50,476 nt of DNA from Chthoniobacterales bacterium (GCA_038214915.1 JBBQRI010000001.1:1-50476), one strand, 5' to 3'. Shown: positions 3,075 to 12,553, numbered from the stretch's first letter. Made by a program: numbers and translations. The notes: a model not told the origin generated them from the letters alone.

Positions 3075-4400
3075 TTACGCCAATTCACGAATGGCTCGAA
3101 GCACCGTCTCGACTTCCTGCGGAGTGTTGACGATACTGCACGCCACGCGCGCATACGATATGCGATACGGAGTCGTGGAAGCGACGATGCGCTGAGCGAG
3201 AAGACGCTCTACTACCCCTTCCGGTTTCATCCCTTTCACATCGAAGCAGACCATGCCGGCGGAAAGATTTTCATCGCGCGGTGTGTAGAGCTGGACACGG
3301 GACGTGCGCGCAAGGCCGTCTTTCATTTGGGCGTTCAGCTCGTGTATCCGCGCGGTGATTCGCGCCGAGCCGATGTTCTGGTGAAAACGAATCGCTTGCG
3401 GTAATGCCCAAAAATGTTCGAACGCTTGGAATCCGCCCGGTGAAAACCATGCCGCTCGCGCCGCAGACGCCGGCTCCTGTTCCTCCTCCCACGCTGCGAA
3501 AAGGTCCGGCGAACTAAACGATGGAATCACTGGACGCATCCTCTGCCAAACCGCTGGCTTTGCCCAAACGAAACCGGTGCCCCGCGGACCGAACAACCAT
3601 TTGTGTGTGCCAGCCGCAAACGCGTCGCATCCCAGCGCCGTGATCTTTGGATCTTCCACGCCAAACCCGTGCACGCCGTCAACGATCAGCAGTACACGAT
3701 CCTTTTCGTCGCGGCTGCGGTTTACTTCCGCCAATGTCTCAGCGATCCGGGCGATCGGCAGCCGCACGCCGCTGCTGGAGTGCACCCAGGTGACGCCGAC
3801 GGCTCGCGTCTTTGGTCCGATCGCTTTGCGAATGCGTTCGGCTATTTCATCCGGCGAAATCGAGTCGTAAGAATCGAAGAGCGGAATTTTCCGCCAGGTC
3901 GCTCCGCACCGCCCCGTGGCAAGCCGGATTGATTCGTGATGCACATAGTGATCGTGCGTAGTGGTCAGGATCTCGTCGCCTTCGCGCAACGGCAGCCCAT
4001 GGTAGAGAAGGGCCAAACCCGTCGTCGTGTTTTGCGTCAACGCGATGTCCTGCCCGTCGCCGCCAATGTAGTTGGCGATGGCACGGCAGACTTGCAACGG
4101 GATGTTCTCGTTTGTCTGTTCGAAAATCGCGCCCTCAACGGTAAGCAACGGATTTGCATCTATCTTCGCCCGGTATTGCTCTATCGCCTGACGCACAAGT
4201 TTTGGGTGGGAGGCTAGAAAAAACAATGCGAAATGAATGTAATCGGGGGCCAGTTCAAATTGTCGGCGTACCGATTCCCAGTCTTTGAAATCGGCAGGAG
4301 CGTTTTCCTTGGTTTTAGCTTCGACGAGAACCGACGAAAGCGCTCCCCCAGCCAGCGACAGCGAACCACGGATGAGAAAATTGCGGCGAGTTAATGGCAT
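3075..4400 (-). CDS. Class V PLP-dependent aminotransferase-fold enzyme (cysteine desulfurase / epimerase-like) with a twin-arginine signal
   Basis: 441-aa ORF. The N-terminus MPLTRRNFLIRGSLSLAGGALSS is Tat-like. The PLP lysine sits in AGTHKWLFGPRGTG, and there are DGVHGFG and TTTHDHY motifs. Confidence 0.85.
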   Translation of the reverse strand: MPLTRRNFLIRGSLSLAGGALSSVLVEAKTKENAPADFKDWESVRRQFELAPDYIHFALFFLASHPKLVRQAIEQYRAKIDANPLLTVEGAIFEQTNENIPLQVCRAIANYIGGDGQDIALTQNTTTGLALLYHGLPLREGDEILTTTHDHYVHHESIRLATGRCGATWRKIPLFDSYDSISPDEIAERIRKAIGPKTRAVGVTWVHSSSGVRLPIARIAETLAEVNRSRDEKDRVLLIVDGVHGFGVEDPKITALGCDAFAAGTHKWLFGPRGTGFVWAKPAVWQRMRPVIPSFSSPDLFAAWEEEQEPASAARAAWFSPGGFQAFEHFWALPQAIRFHQNIGSARITARIHELNAQMKDGLARTSRVQLYTPRDENLSAGMVCFDVKGMKPEGVVERLLAQRIVASTTPYRISYARVACSIVNTPQEVETVLRAIRELA

Positions 4401-4556: not shown

Positions 4557-6434
4557 TCAGCGCTTCCTGCGGCGAGGAGGTCTCGCACGCCGCGGCGTTT
4601 TCCATGGCACCTCGGCTTTGCGCCAGGCTTTTGGTCCAACCAGTTGCGGTTGCTGGTTGTAGTACGGCGACATCACTTCGGCGACGTTGATCACAAGATC
4701 TTGAAAAGTGAACTTCCGTTTCCTGCGTGTGCCGGCGTGTTCGTGCCCGAGGTCAAAAAGCGTTTTTGTAATGAAATAAGTAAACGCGCCATACGCGGTG
4801 ACGCCGTCGCGATACTCGTACGCGTATTGGTCCTCGCCGCATGCTTCGAAAATGAGCGGGAGATACGGACCTTTATGACCATGCTCCGTCTCGCGCATGT
4901 CGCGGGTCTCTTTGTCCTTCGCCAACGCGCGCAGTGGCACCCCGCGCAGGATGCGATTCGAAGCGCCGCTTTTACCCGTGTACGCGTTAGTGTCTTCCAG
5001 GAACCTGGGAAGTTCACGTTCTTCGGCCAACTTGCGCGGTTCCCACAACTCGCGCTCGCGATTCCATTTCAACATCCGGTGTCGAATATCATCGGGCGGA
5101 TTAAGACCGCGCACCTTTGCGCCACCCGCTCGCGTTAATCCTCCGGAGTGGCAACAATCCAGAAATGCAATGAACGCAGTTTCGTATGGGAGCTGCGCGT
5201 ATAGATCGTTGAAGTTATCGTCAGTCAAGTAAGAGGACCTGTCGTTCCAGTCGAAATCGAACGGCACAAACGTCTCGTCAGTATGATCAATGACTTCGTC
5301 ACTGTTGTAATCTGGAACCTGGGCGCCGTGTCCGGAGTAAAAGAACACACGTTGATCGCCCGGTTGCGGATCTTCCAGTAACCATGTGAAGCGTTCACGG
5401 ATGGCCGCGCCAGTCGCCCGTTCATTAAGAAGAATGCGAATGTCTTCGGCGTCGAACCCAACCTGTTGCAGCGCCGCACTCATTTTGAATACATCGTTGA
5501 CGCAACCCTCAAGACGATCGTCGGGATTCGGGTAATCGTTTATACCGACAAGGAAAGCGCGACGCGGCGTGCGGGTCGCAACCGAGGCGGTGACCTGCTT
5601 TTCCCCTACATCTTCAGTAACAGTAACTCGTTTCGGCTTTGCCTTCGCGTCTGCCGATTGCTGTGCAAGAACACGAGGCCGCGGCAGTCCTGCGATTTCG
5701 CGCCAGACTTTGCTCTGTGCATTACCATGGCGGATGTATTCGACGGCGTCGTGGTCCCCCACGCCCGCGAGTTCGAATGTGGTCTCGATAGTTTGGAAAT
5801 TGTTGGCGTAAATCGTGAACGGAACCACGAGCACATCATCATTTTGGTTGTACAAATTGTACCACTCGCGTGCAGCCACCATTTCCAGGCGGCCACCGAA
5901 CAGACTGCGCAGCGCGGATCGACCTATCTGGCACCCGCACGTGATGAAGTACCGGTCGCGAATGATCCTGTTTTGCGGCGGATGCAGAAACAGATCGTAA
6001 GTCAAAAGTGTCCCGAGACTGTGCGCGAACACCACGTCGGGTTCGACCGCTTTGATCTGTTTAGTTAGAGCTTCGCGCAGGCGCTCCCGCAGCTTTTCGT
6101 CTTCGGCAAACTGCGTCACCATGCCGATCTTCCACTTTGCCCCTTCACCAACTTCCTCGCCAAAAGCGCGCCGCCTTCCAAACAAACCTGAAATCCTGTC
6201 GGCCACCGAATACCTGACCTCATCCCACAACAGCCGGCCGAATCCGCCGAGCGTACCGCCAACAGTCATCGGCGTGTCGCCAAAGAGGTCATCGTATTCT
6301 GCGAAACGGACTTCAACCCCGAGGGATTCGTTCCATTTTTGCAGAACATCCTGCAGCGTCTTTTCCCAGAGCGGCTGCCAGCTTGTCGGGTTCTTCTCCT
6401 GGTGACCGAGTCCGTGAACGACGAGGACTCTCAT
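4557..6434 (-). CDS. Two-domain protein: N-terminal alpha/beta-hydrolase-like (Ser-Asp-His) domain fused to a C-terminal metacaspase-like peptidase C14 domain
   Basis: ATG at 6434 (MRVLVVHGLGH). An alternative TTG at 6443 would overlap the upstream stop by 4 nt. Hydrolase motifs are the nucleophile elbow AHSLG (Ser codon 6018-6020), then NDDVLV and GDHD. Caspase motifs are VGINDYP, FFYSGHG (His 5328-5330) and FLDCCHSGG (Cys 5151-5153). The C-terminal tail is RRARPPRRRKR. Confidence 0.8.
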   Translation of the reverse strand: MRVLVVHGLGHQEKNPTSWQPLWEKTLQDVLQKWNESLGVEVRFAEYDDLFGDTPMTVGGTLGGFGRLLWDEVRYSVADRISGLFGRRRAFGEEVGEGAKWKIGMVTQFAEDEKLRERLREALTKQIKAVEPDVVFAHSLGTLLTYDLFLHPPQNRIIRDRYFITCGCQIGRSALRSLFGGRLEMVAAREWYNLYNQNDDVLVVPFTIYANNFQTIETTFELAGVGDHDAVEYIRHGNAQSKVWREIAGLPRPRVLAQQSADAKAKPKRVTVTEDVGEKQVTASVATRTPRRAFLVGINDYPNPDDRLEGCVNDVFKMSAALQQVGFDAEDIRILLNERATGAAIRERFTWLLEDPQPGDQRVFFYSGHGAQVPDYNSDEVIDHTDETFVPFDFDWNDRSSYLTDDNFNDLYAQLPYETAFIAFLDCCHSGGLTRAGGAKVRGLNPPDDIRHRMLKWNRERELWEPRKLAEERELPRFLEDTNAYTGKSGASNRILRGVPLRALAKDKETRDMRETEHGHKGPYLPLIFEACGEDQYAYEYRDGVTAYGAFTYFITKTLFDLGHEHAGTRRKRKFTFQDLVINVAEVMSPYYNQQPQLVGPKAWRKAEVPWKTPRRARPPRRRKR

Positions 6435-6439
6435 CTCAG

Positions 6440-7252
6440 TCAAACTGTGAACGGTTTCTGGCTCTCGAACTGTTCGTTAGTCCGTCCGATGGTGAAATAA
6501 TGCGGTGATTGCGTTGGCGGCATTAGTTTGACGATCGATTGGTGAAAGCCGGGATAATCGCCGTTGAACTTTCCGTTTTTCCAAACAGCAAGCAGCGTTT
6601 CGGTGAACAACCCGTTGCGGTCGCCGTCTGCGCTTGTTTGGTTATCCTGACAGCCGGAGATCAAAAACGCGGTAGCGTCCATTCTCGTGCGTCGAGTGGC
6701 GCTACGTTGTTGGAGTTTGTCGTAGAACTTTTCGTGGTCCATGTAAACGCGCAGCGCAATATCGCGCGGCATCATACGCGGACGCACCGGCTTTAGACCG
6801 AGCGCGGAGAAGTGCGCTGCACGAAGTACCGTGCCGCTGTGGCAACTGTCCGACAGCACAAAAATCCGCACGCCCCTAACAAATTGCTTTAGCGCAGCAT
6901 AAAGCTCGTCATCAATGAGTTCGCCATCGTACAAACACCATGTTTCATCGTAGCCATCCGGCTCAAAATCGTTCCCCGTGTTCGGCACCTGGCCGCCGTG
7001 CCCCGAATAGGTGAGAAAGAAGATGTCGTTCCGTTTCAGTTTCGCCGCTGCGGCTTTGATGTCGGCCAGGACCCGATTGCGTGTCGCCCTTTTCGTAAGG
7101 CGTTTGGTTACTTTCGTGAAGCCTTGGGTTTTCGCCAAAGCTTGCATGTCGTTTGCGTCGAACTCGCACGCGGTGAGTTGTCCGTCCCAGCCGCTGTAGT
7201 GTTTTGGATCGACAGCGTTGAGACCGATGTGGAGAGATGCTCCAACTGTCAT
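6440..7252 (-). CDS. Caspase family protease (peptidase C14), single domain
   Basis: ATG at 7252 is preceded by a GAAAGGA RBS-like site; the longest ORF extends to 7333. Motifs: LHIGLNAVDPKHYSGWDGQLTACEFDANDM, FFLTYSGHGGQ (His 6998-7000), FVLSDSCHSGT (Cys 6842-6844). Confidence 0.8.
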   Translation of the reverse strand: MTVGASLHIGLNAVDPKHYSGWDGQLTACEFDANDMQALAKTQGFTKVTKRLTKRATRNRVLADIKAAAAKLKRNDIFFLTYSGHGGQVPNTGNDFEPDGYDETWCLYDGELIDDELYAALKQFVRGVRIFVLSDSCHSGTVLRAAHFSALGLKPVRPRMMPRDIALRVYMDHEKFYDKLQQRSATRRTRMDATAFLISGCQDNQTSADGDRNGLFTETLLAVWKNGKFNGDYPGFHQSIVKLMPPTQSPHYFTIGRTNEQFESQKPFTV

Positions 7253-7393
7253 AAGCGGTCCTTTCGTTTTGGAATAGGACGCCGATTCTGACCAGAACGC
7301 ACCGCCTGTGCAAGACGATTGTCGCTTCTGCATCGCCGACAGGATTGTTCCCGCGACAATTCAGTTTGCATAAGCTGAAATCACGCGTCTATC

Positions 7394-8251
7394 TTGAGAC
7401 CCGTGTTCAGCTTGACTATGCTCGGCAGCGGGAGCGCGGGAAACAGCGCGCTGGTCGCGACTGATCATTGCAAGGTTCTCATCGACGGCGGACTAAGCGC
7501 GCGACAATTGGTGTTGCGCCTTGAACTCTGCGGCGTCACGCCGGAGCAACTTGATGGCGTCCTTCTGACACACGAGCACGGCGATCACATCTGCGGACTC
7601 GAAGTTCTCTGCCGAAAATTCAATGTGCCGATTTATTCCAATGCATTAACGGCGGAATCGGTTCGCGGTGACGGAGCATTCGAGGCGCACCGCAACTGGC
7701 GGATCTTTGCGACCGGCGCCGAGTTTTCTATTTGCGATATCACTGTGCAAACGTTCCCCGTCCCGCACGACGCGGTGGACCCGCTGGGGTTCGTGTTTCA
7801 CGCCGGCTCAGGCAGCCTCGGGTTTATTACCGACCTCGGTTACGTGACCAAGTTAATCGTCGAACGCTTGCGAGAAGTGCAAACGCTCGTGATCGAGACT
7901 AATCACGACGAAAAACTTTTGCAGAACGACACGCACCGGCCCTGGCCGGTGAAACAGCGCATCCAGTCGCGGCACGGACATCTGTCCAACACGGCTGCGG
8001 CGGGCGTGATCGAGGACTTGTTACCCGGAAAAATCGACCGCGTCGTGCTGGGGCATCTCAGCCGTGATTGCAACACGCCGGCACTCGCATTAAGCACGGT
8101 GCGGGCGTCGCTCGAGAAGTGCGGCAGGAACGACGTCGAAACTTATTGCGCCACGCAATTCGAAATCAGTTCCCGATTCCGGATCGGCGCGACCAAGTCT
8201 GGTGCGTTTCAACCGACTTTCGAAAACGCGTTCTTTCAAAACGCGCTGTAG
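7394..8251 (+). CDS. MBL-fold metallo-hydrolase (YycJ/PhnP-like)
   Basis: 285-aa ORF with a TTG start. It has the HxHxDH motif LLTHEHGDHICG, an N-terminal LGSGSAGNS, and a C-terminal HGHLSN. Confidence 0.85.
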   Translation: MRPVFSLTMLGSGSAGNSALVATDHCKVLIDGGLSARQLVLRLELCGVTPEQLDGVLLTHEHGDHICGLEVLCRKFNVPIYSNALTAESVRGDGAFEAHRNWRIFATGAEFSICDITVQTFPVPHDAVDPLGFVFHAGSGSLGFITDLGYVTKLIVERLREVQTLVIETNHDEKLLQNDTHRPWPVKQRIQSRHGHLSNTAAAGVIEDLLPGKIDRVVLGHLSRDCNTPALALSTVRASLEKCGRNDVETYCATQFEISSRFRIGATKSGAFQPTFENAFFQNAL

Positions 8252-8361: not shown

Positions 8362-8748
8362 ATGTATGCGGTTGAGCTCGACCAATCGAAACGCCTACTG
8401 GTGATCAGCGCTGCGCAAAGGGTCACGGCCGAGGAAGCAAACCTAGCCGCGCAACGGATCCGTGAGCTGTTGCAGGACGTCGCGCCCGGGTTTCACGTTC
8501 TGGCGGATTTCCGCTGGCTTGAGTCAATGGATTCCGCAGCGGCGCGGCACATCGCCGAGATAATGGACGCGATCGCCGAGAAAAATGTCGCCTCGGTCAC
8601 GCGAGTGATGCCCGATCCGCACAAGGACATCGGTCTCAATATCCTGTCGCAATTCCATTATGGAGCGAACGTGAAGATCGCGACCTTCGAAACCTTGGCT
8701 GATGCGCTGCAAAATATTGCAGCGGAAGTAGACTCTCCGTCTGCTTAA
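8362..8748 (+). CDS. Hypothetical protein, possibly STAS/SpoIIAA-like fold
   Basis: 128-aa ORF with coding-like composition. The layout (short strand, helix, ADFRWLESMD...) resembles STAS-like domains. The assignment is weak. Confidence 0.45.
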   Translation: MYAVELDQSKRLLVISAAQRVTAEEANLAAQRIRELLQDVAPGFHVLADFRWLESMDSAAARHIAEIMDAIAEKNVASVTRVMPDPHKDIGLNILSQFHYGANVKIATFETLADALQNIAAEVDSPSA

Positions 8749-9440
8749 TACCGCTCGGCTCCAAGCTTGTTTCCAGCCTTAACCGCTTCGGGTTCGGTCA
8801 TGTATTGACCTTTTTTCGTGGTCCCGTAGAAACGCGAGCCTTCCTTGTGATAAACGTGCGTCTCGGTGTTAACCCAAACCTTGCCGTGGCCTCCGCCAGG
8901 CGCGGGCGCTTTCGTCGCTACCTGAGTGCTCGTGTTTTTCGCTGGGGCTGGGCCCGCGGCGGCGGGACTGGCTGCTGCCGTCGAGGTTTTCGGTTTGAAC
9001 AAATCGCTGAGGTTGAATTTAGCTGGTGACGCTGATGCCGAAGGACTTGCCACTGCTGCGGCGCCGGCCTTTGTCTGAGCGTGTTTTCCCTTGGGGGAAG
9101 CTGCCGGTGAGCCGGCTGGACTTGCCACTGCTGCAGCGCCGGTCTTTGTCTGGGCGTGTTTTCCCTTTGGGGAAGCTGCAGGTGACGCGGCTGGACTTGC
9201 TGCTGTTGCAGCGTCGGCTTGTCTGAGAGCGCGCTTCGCTTTGGGCGAAGTTGCGGGTGAGGCAGCCGCTGAAGGCGATGCGGCGGTCTCAGCTGCCGAG
9301 GCTTTCGTCTCGGCTTTCTTATGTGCCCGTTTCGTTGGCTCTTTCGCTGGTGATTCGCCCGGACTGGGTGACTGATCTTGCGCGATACAAACTCCGGCGA
9401 ACCCGATTAGGCAAAGCAGAGCAAAGATTTTTGTGGTCAT
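8745..9440 (-). CDS. Secreted low-complexity Ala/Ser/Pro/Lys repeat protein with a conserved small C-terminal domain
   Basis: The signal peptide is MTTKIFALLCLIGFAGVCIAQ. The body carries 25-aa tandem repeats (ASPKGKHAQTK.GAAAVASP...). The C-terminus is VWVNTETHVYHKEGSRFYGTTKKGQYMTEPEAVKAGNK, a motif I recognise from small secreted bacterial proteins. Confidence 0.7.
   Translation of the reverse strand: MTTKIFALLCLIGFAGVCIAQDQSPSPGESPAKEPTKRAHKKAETKASAAETAASPSAAASPATSPKAKRALRQADAATAASPAASPAASPKGKHAQTKTGAAAVASPAGSPAASPKGKHAQTKAGAAAVASPSASASPAKFNLSDLFKPKTSTAAASPAAAGPAPAKNTSTQVATKAPAPGGGHGKVWVNTETHVYHKEGSRFYGTTKKGQYMTEPEAVKAGNKLGAERY
9043..9270. repeat. 75-bp tandem repeat, about 3 units (third degenerate), inside the CDS
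   Basis: Units start with GGACTTGCC at 9043, 9118 and 9193. Units 1 and 2 differ at only a few positions. Confidence 0.8.
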
Positions 9441-11323: not shown

Positions 11324-12553
11324 TTGGAAGAAATGCCTTCGCCCATTCGAATTCTAACCGCAGTCCCGATTTGTGATGGCCACGACAGTGCGATCAACAC
11401 GATCAACCTGGAGTTCATCCGGCACGGGATCGAAGTAATTTATCTCGGCTATCACCGCTCGGTTGCCGACATCGTCCGTGCCGCCATCCAGGAGGACGTG
11501 CGGGCAATTGGCATATCGAGTTACAACGGTGGGCACATCGAATTTTTCGCGGCCGTGGTCGATCTTTTGCGCAAAAAGGGCGCGGACGATATCAAGGTTT
11601 TCGGGGGAGGCGGCGGCACCATCACGCGCGACGACGCGGCAATGATGAGACGCAAAGGCGTAGACGAGATTTTCTTTGCCGGCACGTCACTCGACGACAT
11701 GGTGAAATTTGTGTATCGGCGTTATGCCAAGCCTCGAACGAAACGGCCGCGCCCAAAATCCGTCGATCAGGAGCTGGCACACAAACTAACTCAAATTGAA
11801 GATGCACAGGCCAGGGGAAAACGCACAACGCCCAACACAGTCAAAGGACGCCAAACATCAAACATCGAACATCGATCGTCGAAAGTGATCGGTTTCACCG
11901 GGCCGGGCGGCGCGGGAAAGACGACGTTGATCGACGAGCTCGTCCTGCGGTTTCTGAATCGAAATCCCGAGGGCCGAATCGCGATTTTGTCGCACGACCC
12001 CAGCGTAGTCGGCAAAGGCGCGTTGCTGGGCGACCGCGCGACGATGATCAATTCGCAGGATAATCGCGTGTTCATGCGCAGCATGGCCACGCGCGGACAG
12101 CCGGGCGGACTCTCGCCCGCAACGCACGATTGTCTCGCGTTGCTGGCACAGTCGGATTTCGATTACGTCATTATCGAGACCGTGGGCACCGGCCAGGAGG
12201 CGATGCCGTTCCAAAAAAATGGCATTGTTGATTCAACCGTGCTGGTGATGAATCCCGACTACGGCAGCCGGTTGCAATTGCAAAAGATCGTGATGCTCGA
12301 TCTGGCTGACATCGTGGTGGTGAACAAGAGCGATCTCCAGCGGGCGCGCACTGCGCATTCGGAAATCGAGCAGCGCCTCGATCAAAACCGGCGAGACCAG
12401 CAACTGGTCGATACCGTTGCAAAACGGCACCGCGACTCTGGCGTGGACCGATTGTTTGAGTTAATCTCAAACAGATCTGTAGCGGCGGTTTCCTCGTCAG
12501 GTCGGAGTGGCGCGAAGCCGGATGACCGCCGATCAAAACGGCGACGGCGCTGA
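11324..12553 (+). CDS. B12-binding domain fused to a MeaB/ArgK-type G-protein chaperone (N-terminal two-thirds of an IcmF-like mutase)
   Basis: The B12-binding motif is ICDGHDSAIN in a Rossmann-like segment. A basic linker follows. The GTPase has P-loop GPGGAGKTT, ETVGTGQ and NKSD motifs. Confidence 0.85.
   Translation: MEEMPSPIRILTAVPICDGHDSAINTINLEFIRHGIEVIYLGYHRSVADIVRAAIQEDVRAIGISSYNGGHIEFFAAVVDLLRKKGADDIKVFGGGGGTITRDDAAMMRRKGVDEIFFAGTSLDDMVKFVYRRYAKPRTKRPRPKSVDQELAHKLTQIEDAQARGKRTTPNTVKGRQTSNIEHRSSKVIGFTGPGGAGKTTLIDELVLRFLNRNPEGRIAILSHDPSVVGKGALLGDRATMINSQDNRVFMRSMATRGQPGGLSPATHDCLALLAQSDFDYVIIETVGTGQEAMPFQKNGIVDSTVLVMNPDYGSRLQLQKIVMLDLADIVVVNKSDLQRARTAHSEIEQRLDQNRRDQQLVDTVAKRHRDSGVDRLFELISNRSVAAVSSSGRSGAKPDDRRSKRRRR

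Follow-up and report, generated by a model that had tools for sequence, protein, structure and literature searches.

The 50,476-nucleotide (nt) stretch of DNA from a Chthoniobacterales bacterium analyzed here (hereafter, the window) contains, at positions 4557-7252, a pair of genes, A and B, each of which encodes a predicted caspase-like protease. Open reading frame calling in the window placed both genes on the minus strand, in the same direction, with A upstream of B (Table 1). An alternative start of A, an upstream ATG at 7333, would yield a protein of 297 amino acids (aa; 6440..7333), and the longer reading of B, from a TTG, would extend that gene to 4557..6443. This in-frame TTG (6441-6443) overlaps the stop codon of A, and the 5-nt spacing between the stop codon of A and the ATG of B suggests that the two genes are translationally coupled. 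Similarly tight spacing of the two genes is found in relatives, namely, 6 nt in locus L085, about 0-3 nt in L001, and 10 nt in L037. An earlier sequence-only reading of this DNA had proposed the 5-nt spacer and the overlapping TTG option, along with the stop and start codons and the codons of the catalytic His (CAC) and Cys (TGC) residues of both proteases, and all these positions were confirmed at the codon level. Not so the hairpins that it had placed in the 156-base-pair (bp) spacer after B, because folding of this spacer is not better than that of shuffled sequence (z = -0.76); terminator-like and promoter-like matches across the cassette also occur at chance level compared with shuffled controls.

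Two predicted metacaspases and a candidate hydrolase

Both proteins score above the Pfam gathering threshold for Peptidase_C14 (PF00656, 21.4 bits), A with 78.8 bits (E 6.7e-22) and B with 98.7 bits (E 5.3e-28), and both retain an intact His/Cys dyad, in agreement with the assignment made in the sequence-only reading. The DSCHSG motif of A is the canonical metacaspase signature. In a profile search of the PDB, the best solved relative of A was GSU0716 of Geobacter sulfurreducens (PDB 3bij; E 7e-92), which aligns end to end with residues 3-270, and this full-length alignment to a solved structure supports the caspase/hemoglobinase fold; the two proteins are alike in the SGHG and DSCHSG motifs as well as in length. 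We classify A as a predicted GSU0716-type bacterial type-I metacaspase without a prodomain, GSU0716 itself having been classed as a bacterial type-I metacaspase that consists of p20 and p10 parts and lacks a prodomain (Choi and Berges 2013, PMC3734836). No function is known for GSU0716, which was a target of structural genomics, and no partner gene is reported for it in the literature examined. The A family is very large, with more than 7,700 matches among the candidates scored, and most of the A homologues are 270 aa long. Neither A (28.4 bits) nor B (32.7 bits) reaches the curated cut-off of 140 bits for the EACC1-associated caspase family NF047832 of NCBIfam.

The protease domain of B is of a different kind. 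Its best matches in the PDB profile search are AtMC9, MCA2 and AtMC4 (E 1e-33 to 1e-28), and the top Foldseek matches are AtMC9 and AtMC4 (E about 1e-16, target-normalized TM score of 0.55-0.66), so that the plant type-II metacaspases AtMC4 and AtMC9 are the closest matches both in sequence and in fold. In the plant enzymes as in B, the p20 and p10 parts are separated by a long insert, and a basic residue lies just past the region of the catalytic Cys, but the identity is only about 22-25%, and fusion to a hydrolase is absent in the plant enzymes. Given the long p20-p10 insert and the lack of a zinc-finger or proline-rich prodomain, in place of which a hydrolase domain precedes the protease, we assign this domain as a predicted type-II-like metacaspase; its His/Cys motif residues are invariant in an alignment of 58 B homologues. 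AtMC4 and AtMC9 are Arg/Lys-specific and require no separate sensor for their activation by Ca2+ or pH. Judging from the metacaspase signature alone, A and B would also be expected to cleave after Arg or Lys. The sequence-only reading had already assigned the two proteases to distinct sequence types, and indeed, the identity between their p20 regions is only 29.6% (E 5e-13). This low identity, combined with the different subfamilies, rules out a recent tandem duplication, and A and B are anciently diverged metacaspases.

The additional enzymatic domain that had been claimed for B, and only for B, was identified as a predicted minimal alpha/beta-hydrolase domain that encompasses residues 1-262. 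The oxyanion motif H7-G8 and the putative catalytic residues S139, D199 and H228 are invariant across the 58 B homologues, and the Ser-Asp-His order of the triad is canonical. Two AlphaFold (AF2) models that include this domain, with predicted local distance difference test (pLDDT) values of 79.6 and 82.5, show a nucleophile elbow composed of a strand (134-138), S139 and a helix (140-149), with D199 located after strand 190-195 and H228 after strand 213-217. The AHSLG sequence at the elbow corresponds to the A-x-S-x-G pentapeptide of the minimal Bacillus lipases. The match of this domain to the Pfam Ser_hydrolase family is below the threshold (E 0.02), and a PDB sequence profile search with the domain detected no relative.

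Two conserved basic sites in B are candidates for proteolytic processing. The first, RRR|GF in the family consensus, is located inside a disordered loop of the hydrolase (residues 74-95), the least confidently modeled one, where pLDDT falls below 50 at residues 76-95 in one model and 74-94 in the other; R87 is conserved in 50 of the 58 homologues, R89 in 57, Gly or Ala at position 90 in 56, and Phe or Leu at position 91 in 54. The second, R442-G443, at the start of the p20-p10 linker, is similarly conserved (57/58 and 56/58, respectively), and the adjacent segment 430-439 has pLDDT below 50. Type-II metacaspases autoprocess within the p20-p10 linker, and R442-G443 is a candidate for such a site. 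On linker autoprocessing of type-II metacaspases, see also PMC3734836. B ends with a strongly basic tail, KTPRRARPPRRRKR, and in the alignment, short basic tails comparable to this one are present at the C-terminus of many B homologues.

Table 1. Genes, domains and motifs of the A-B locus, with positions in the window
Feature	Position	Strand	Details and basis
Gene A	6440..7252	(-)	270 aa; start ATG supported by 270-aa homologues; stop codon 6440-6442
A, SGHG motif	6995..7006	(-)	Catalytic His85, codon 6998-7000
A, DSCHSG motif	6833..6850	(-)	Catalytic Cys137, codon 6842-6844
A/B junction	6432..6443	(-)	TGA of A 6440-6442, 5-nt spacer, ATG of B 6432-6434
Gene B	4557..6434	(-)	625 aa from ATG; predicted alpha/beta-hydrolase and metacaspase fusion
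B, predicted minimal alpha/beta-hydrolase domain, residues 1-262	5649..6434	(-)	Invariant motifs, AF2 models, hhalign
B, HG oxyanion motif (H7-G8)	6411-6416	(-)	Invariant in alignments
B, candidate protease-cleavage site RRRAF, residues 87-91 (family RRR|GF)	6162..6176	(-)	Conservation and low pLDDT
B, AHSLG nucleophile elbow	6012-6026	(-)	Ser139, codon 6018-6020
B, Asp199	5838-5840	(-)	Invariant, putative triad residue
B, His228	5751-5753	(-)	Invariant, putative triad residue
B, low-complexity interdomain linker, residues 263-290	5565..5648	(-)	pLDDT 53-72 in 10-residue blocks of 261-290, below 50 only at 281-285; variable in alignment
B, predicted type-II-like metacaspase domain, residues 291-612	4599..5564	(-)	Pfam E 5.3e-28; PDB profile; Foldseek
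B, YSGHG motif	5325-5339	(-)	His369, codon 5328-5330
B, DCCHSG motif	5142-5159	(-)	Cys428, codon 5151-5153
B, candidate autoprocessing site R442-G443	5106..5111	(-)	Start of p20-p10 linker, just past catalytic Cys
B, insert of about 85 aa, residues 440-525	4860-5117	(-)	Between p20-like and p10-like parts, after catalytic Cys
B, strongly basic C-terminal tail KTPRRARPPRRRKR, residues 606-625	4560..4619	(-)	Sequence reading

Relationship of B to the caspase and alpha/beta-hydrolase module

The hydrolase domain of B also has stand-alone relatives. A tblastn search of plasmids with this domain retrieved "hypothetical proteins" of ~290 aa, the genes of which abut or overlap "caspase family protein" genes in Hymenobacter, Ensifer, Agrobacterium (pTi), Bradyrhizobium, Sinorhizobium and Rhizobium, adjoin a CHAT gene in S. 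fredii and, on Streptomyces plasmids, lie beside NACHT-WD or giant ATPase genes with N-terminal caspase domains. In an hhalign comparison with nine of these stand-alone hydrolases, the B domain was aligned over 244 columns with 99.7% probability (E 9e-27), and on the strength of this profile alignment, we consider the B hydrolase to be homologous to this caspase-associated family.

Combinations of this kind have been described previously. Kaur et al. 2020 (PMC7159879) reported an "alpha/beta-hydrolase-CASPASE peptidase pairing", along with systems that contain two caspase domains and one hydrolase, and in Lysobacter capsici, LcHydrolase is a zymogen that is cut at R73|G and R117|G into toxic fragments, its protease counterpart LcCaspase having the residue Cys129 (Evans et al. 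2025, PMC12642450). In the stand-alone hydrolases, (K/R)|G motifs occur near residues 71 and 111, and the catalytic Cys of the adjacent proteases is located at about residues 125-126, positions that agree with the published R73, R117 and Cys129. In its context, size and motif positions, the stand-alone family fits both the pairing of Kaur et al. and LcCaspase/LcHydrolase. The sequence-only reading had found no named system to match the locus, but the hydrolase-caspase pairing was already known from these two reports; B is a single-protein form of the described caspase and alpha/beta-hydrolase cell-death module, not an undescribed system. B and this module have in common the hydrolase family, its obligate linkage to a caspase-superfamily protease, which in B takes the form of a fusion, and a conserved Arg|Gly located within a flexible insert that precedes the nucleophile elbow. 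They differ in that the hydrolase of the module is a separate zymogen of ~290 aa whereas in B, hydrolase and protease reside on one polypeptide, and in that the module is found in plasmid or defense-like contexts whereas the B locus is chromosomal and lies among housekeeping genes.

The co-occurrence of two metacaspase genes is not without precedent either. In the survey of Asplund-Samuelsson et al. 2012 (PMC3501461), 20 of the 217 metacaspase operons contain more than one metacaspase, so that operons with several metacaspases had already been catalogued. These operons resemble A-B in comprising co-directional metacaspase genes within one predicted operon, but the survey includes neither a hydrolase-metacaspase fusion nor an exchangeable partner slot, and the groups for which it lists multi-metacaspase operons are limited to Alphaproteobacteria, Bacteroidetes, Cyanobacteria and Deltaproteobacteria. 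A precedent for the activation of one bacterial caspase-fold protease by another is provided by the Type III-B CRISPR proteolytic cascade, in which SAVED-CHAT is reported to activate PCaspase (Steens et al. 2024); that cascade runs on cyclic-oligoadenylate signaling from CRISPR, whereas the window contains no CRISPR, SAVED or CHAT component. In the literature examined, we did not find a description of the single-chain hydrolase-metacaspase, of its sensor-less core-genome setting, or of the exchangeable slot for a neighboring protease.

The B fusion architecture is widespread, being present in at least 1,909 proteins identified by a word-indexed search and in at least 311 GTDB species recovered by a motif-based scan, in Verrucomicrobiota, Planctomycetota, Pseudomonadota, Nitrospirota, Bacteroidota, Desulfobacterota and other phyla. 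When the hydrolase profile was searched exhaustively with HMMER, 1,674 clusters were matched at E <= 1e-3 and, at the stricter E <= 1e-30, 241 clusters; the close relatives in this search are mostly fusions of 580-630 aa. Other architectures were also observed. In P0309 (699 aa), a clostripain-type C11 protease is fused straight to the hydrolase and the C14 domain is absent, and in P0298, P0351, P0278, P0263 and P0367 (1050-1353 aa), the hydrolase-metacaspase core is joined by a PLC-type Phosphoesterase, PLD-like or ALO domain. The domains added in the larger relatives are enzymes, with no recognizable sensor domain among them, and the PLC-type, PLD-like and ALO additions support a lipid-directed role of the effector. 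In line with a lipid theme are also the lipase-type AHSLG pentapeptide and the place of LipA (1t4m) among the best fold matches of the hydrolase domain.

Neighborhoods of B and of A-type genes

We surveyed the neighborhoods of 80 B loci from reference genomes, with 1.1 megabases (Mb) of flanking sequence in total. An A-type gene adjoins B in six of these loci, upstream in L001, L037, L046 and L058, and downstream in L044 and L052, both from Bradyrhizobium. These six loci fall into at least four separate clades of the B tree and include both gene orders, and all six A-type genes found in the 1.1 Mb of flanks are located within 320 bp of B. Thus, the adjacency of A and B recurs far above chance. 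Within the clade of the window, the pair is retained in two loci that share synteny with the window (L087 and L097), in L085, where the flanking genes are different, and in L001, whereas L086, with a B protein 56% identical to that of the window, lacks A. The conserved synteny of the pair, which the sequence-only reading had put forward as a check of its proposal, was therefore observed in part: the pair recurs in adjacent positions in at least four B clades, but with 74 of the 80 B loci lacking A, the pairing is not obligate. We conclude from this distribution that the association is real but facultative. In L097, additional Peptidase_C14 gene fragments (222-1969) are present upstream of the A homologue and could be the pieces of a third metacaspase gene that frameshifts in the assembly have disrupted.

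Adjacent to B, several other hydrolases are found in the position that A occupies in the window. This partner slot is taken by an astacin-like metzincin in nine loci, by a GSU0716-like (A-type) C14 protease in six, by a clostripain-type C11 protease in six, by an AvrRpt2-type C70 protease in three, by an Amidase_2-SH3 protein in three, and by an eCIS_core protein in two. Counted as co-directional hydrolase genes, partners are present in 28 of the 80 B loci (21 of 61 if the count is limited to loci with complete flanks), and the type of the partner is clade-specific, following the phylogeny of B. No signal peptides were found in the partner hydrolases. Genes for astacin-like proteins (with a PPC domain), C11 or C70 proteases lie within 400 bp of B, before or after it, in L004, L011, L019, L020, L022, L029, L031, L032, L034, L041-L043, L054, L062, L064, L070, L074 and L078. 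In three Bacteroidota loci (L061, L066 and L069), the genes flanking B encode a cytoplasmic-looking Amidase_2-SH3 cell-wall hydrolase and a 500-aa eCIS_core (DUF4157) protein, and the eCIS_core neighbors hint at a link to contractile-injection cargo in this lineage.

For the context of A-type genes at a greater distance, we sampled five such genes, with 57-59% identity. In L082 (6001-9490), the A-type gene is convergent to a gene for an 841-aa C14-FGE-sulfatase fusion, with a giant CHAT-STAND-WD40 protein encoded nearby, and in L099 (5001-7609), a 579-aa CHAT protease is encoded 33 nt downstream of the A-type gene. A-type genes show some tendency to neighbor other caspase-fold proteases.

The immediate surroundings of the pair in the window are ordinary metabolic genes that encode a generic hydrolase of the metallo-beta-lactamase (MBL) fold, a class-V aminotransferase similar to PvdN and a short-chain dehydrogenase/reductase (SDR) similar to FabG, consistent with the unrelated housekeeping flanks recognized in the sequence-only reading; the synteny is conserved in the relatives L087 and L097. 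The divergent MBL gene (7394-8251) was considered as a possible protease-associated effector and rejected, given that its matches are no more than generic ones or weak ones to N-terminal motifs and that the gene is missing next to A in L081, L082, L084 and L085. The class-V aminotransferase downstream of B (3075-4400, minus strand) is similar to PvdN, a periplasmic enzyme of pyoverdine tailoring (E 2e-121, short of the curated cut-off), and carries a twin-arginine-like signal, MPLTRRNFLIRG, at its N-terminus. Farther away, the minus-strand gene at 8745-9440 encodes a 231-aa Ala/Pro/Ser-rich protein that combines a lipoprotein-like N-terminus, "ASPAASPKGKHAQTK(T/A)GAAAVASP" repeat units and a conserved C-terminal module, and the plus-strand gene at 11324-12553 encodes a B12-binding domain fused to a MeaB-like GTPase, a product that resembles the N-terminal third of the fused isobutyryl-CoA mutase IcmF (E 4e-91, far under the equivalog cut-off).

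Proposed mechanism and alternative explanations

With roughly even confidence, we propose that B is a self-contained, protease-gated, lipase-like effector, and that A is its facultative partner. By analogy with LcCaspase/LcHydrolase, we infer that the N-terminal hydrolase, with its lipase-like Ser-Asp-His triad, is a latent zymogen, held inactive by the disordered insert at about residues 52-100. Cleavage after RRR (R89|G/A90) by a metacaspase, either the domain of B itself or a partner such as A, would switch the hydrolase on, and R442|G443 is probably a further site, at which the B protease processes itself. Once released, the hydrolase would then attack an ester substrate, most likely, a membrane lipid, resulting in growth arrest or death. 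A would fill the exchangeable "second hydrolase" slot in a lineage-specific manner and, most likely, would activate B or be activated by B through trans-cleavage after Arg or Lys. A role of A as an initiator or amplifier is plausible, given the genomic pattern and the fusion of a C11 protease to the hydrolase in P0309. The trigger might be Ca2+ or damage sensed by the metacaspase itself, which is a reasonable guess because type-II metacaspases need no separate sensor in order to respond to Ca2+ or pH.

Several observations weigh against this proposal. Some concern the fold and the processing of the hydrolase. A Foldseek search with this domain gave no alpha/beta-hydrolase match at E <= 1e-3; the best of the weak alpha/beta-hydrolase matches were XCC1541 (probability 0.98), the esterase 5cml and LipA (1t4m, TM score of 0.53), and many of the weak matches were to unrelated Rossmann-like folds. 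The window copy of B has RRR-A in place of RRR-G. In the published module, two (R/K)|G sites, 40-44 residues apart, flank an inhibitory fragment, whereas the B hydrolase has one strong R|G site, and the insert that precedes its nucleophile is shorter by about 35 residues. Moreover, the stand-alone family was matched to LcHydrolase indirectly, through context, size and motif positions. The proteases differ as well: that of the module is a DACRS-type caspase with the catalytic Cys at about residue 125-129, whereas B contains a canonical DCCHSG metacaspase, and a BLAST comparison of the B protease with the module caspases yields E >= 0.001. The difference in protease subtype led us to reject the idea that B arose simply by joining the two genes of the published module.

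Other adverse observations come from the genomic context. The module proteases are tied to a STAND, WD40 or vWA-MoxR/VMAP sensor, whereas no sensor domain was found in A, B or the flanking genes. Among the models of PADLOC-DB v2, A and B match only the generic "caspase" model PDLC02987, the B hydrolase domain has no match, and the gene set of no named anti-phage system was detected. There are no known defense genes among the neighbors of B in the 80 loci, no defense-island context at the window, and no B relative on viral contigs. A partner hydrolase is absent in about two thirds of the B loci, and three of the five sampled distant A-type genes (L081, L084 and L098) are solitary among housekeeping genes.

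The last two observations bear most directly on a somewhat unlikely alternative, namely, that A and B are functionally independent metacaspases that are brought together by shared regulation, for example, in a stress regulon, or by clustering of protease genes, so that B gates its own hydrolase and A acts on other substrates. Being mostly solitary, A-type genes need no B-type partner, and B, with an intact protease domain of its own, needs no A, which is indeed missing in 74 of the 80 B loci; furthermore, multi-metacaspase operons are common, and no cascade is demonstrated for them (PMC3501461). Other observations speak against independence. The adjacency of A and B arose or was kept in at least four separate B clades across phyla, in both gene orders, with every A-type gene in the 1.1 Mb of flanks directly adjoining B; the spacing of the two genes suggests translational coupling; the pair moves as a unit into other flanks, as in L085; other A-type genes lie beside CHAT and C14-FGE-sulfatase genes; and in the C11-hydrolase fusion, a protease of a partner type is physically tied to the hydrolase.

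A different objection concerns not the pairing but the outcome. The cassette might serve housekeeping or stress physiology, such as lipid or ester turnover, membrane remodeling, or protein quality control as in the case of yeast Yca1, with the metacaspase tuning a lipase-like enzyme non-lethally. The core metabolic neighbors of the pair, with no mobile or defense genes nearby in the window, the synteny kept in L087 and L097, the lack of known defense genes among the B neighbors across the 80 genomes, the absence from viral contigs, and the absence of a sensor domain would all be compatible with such a role, and non-death roles of metacaspases are documented (PMC3734836). We nevertheless regard this explanation as distinctly improbable, given that cleavage renders the homologous stand-alone hydrolase toxic (Evans et al. 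2025, PMC12642450), that the stand-alone hydrolases occur in mobile or defense-like plasmid contexts, together with DEAD/DEAH helicases, NACHT-WD, CHAT and toxin-antitoxin genes, and that B relatives gather destructive enzymes, including PLC-type and PLD-like domains, astacin, clostripain and a cell-wall amidase without a signal peptide. Least likely of all, and in our estimate very improbable, is the possibility that B and the partner hydrolases are exported toxins, the cargo of contractile-injection or type VI-like systems: some B neighbors are eCIS_core proteins or Amidase_2-SH3 cell-wall hydrolases, the partners lack Sec signal peptides despite belonging to normally extracellular enzyme families, and B has a basic C-terminal tail, but there are no injection-system or secretion genes near the window locus or among the recurrent neighbors, eCIS_core neighbors were found in only 2 of the 80 loci, all in Bacteroidota, and no immunity-gene candidate is evident.

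The proposal that B is a protease-gated lipase-like effector could be extended to the entire family, such that B and the protease in its slot would constitute a widespread, sensor-less two-protease death module, with the neighbor as the initiator and the metacaspase-lipase as the executioner. We consider this extension unlikely. If true, it would imply a bacterial counterpart of the initiator/executioner caspase cascades that is built of true metacaspases and is encoded in the core genome, outside defense islands.

The roles of bacterial metacaspases are largely unknown, and B ties a canonical metacaspase covalently to a family for which a protease-activated toxin has been demonstrated. It thereby offers a concrete substrate and read-out on which a bacterial metacaspase could be tested, namely, cleavage at RRR|G followed by activation of the hydrolase. 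The lack of a sensor in the module, together with its housekeeping context, raises the question of the trigger, which might be Ca2+ or damage sensing by the metacaspase, or else the neighboring protease. If the partner proteases do not act on B, the locus would be one more member of the protease-effector theme. If they do, it would provide a simple natural system for the study of bacterial protease cascades and, possibly, of the evolutionary roots of metacaspase signaling.

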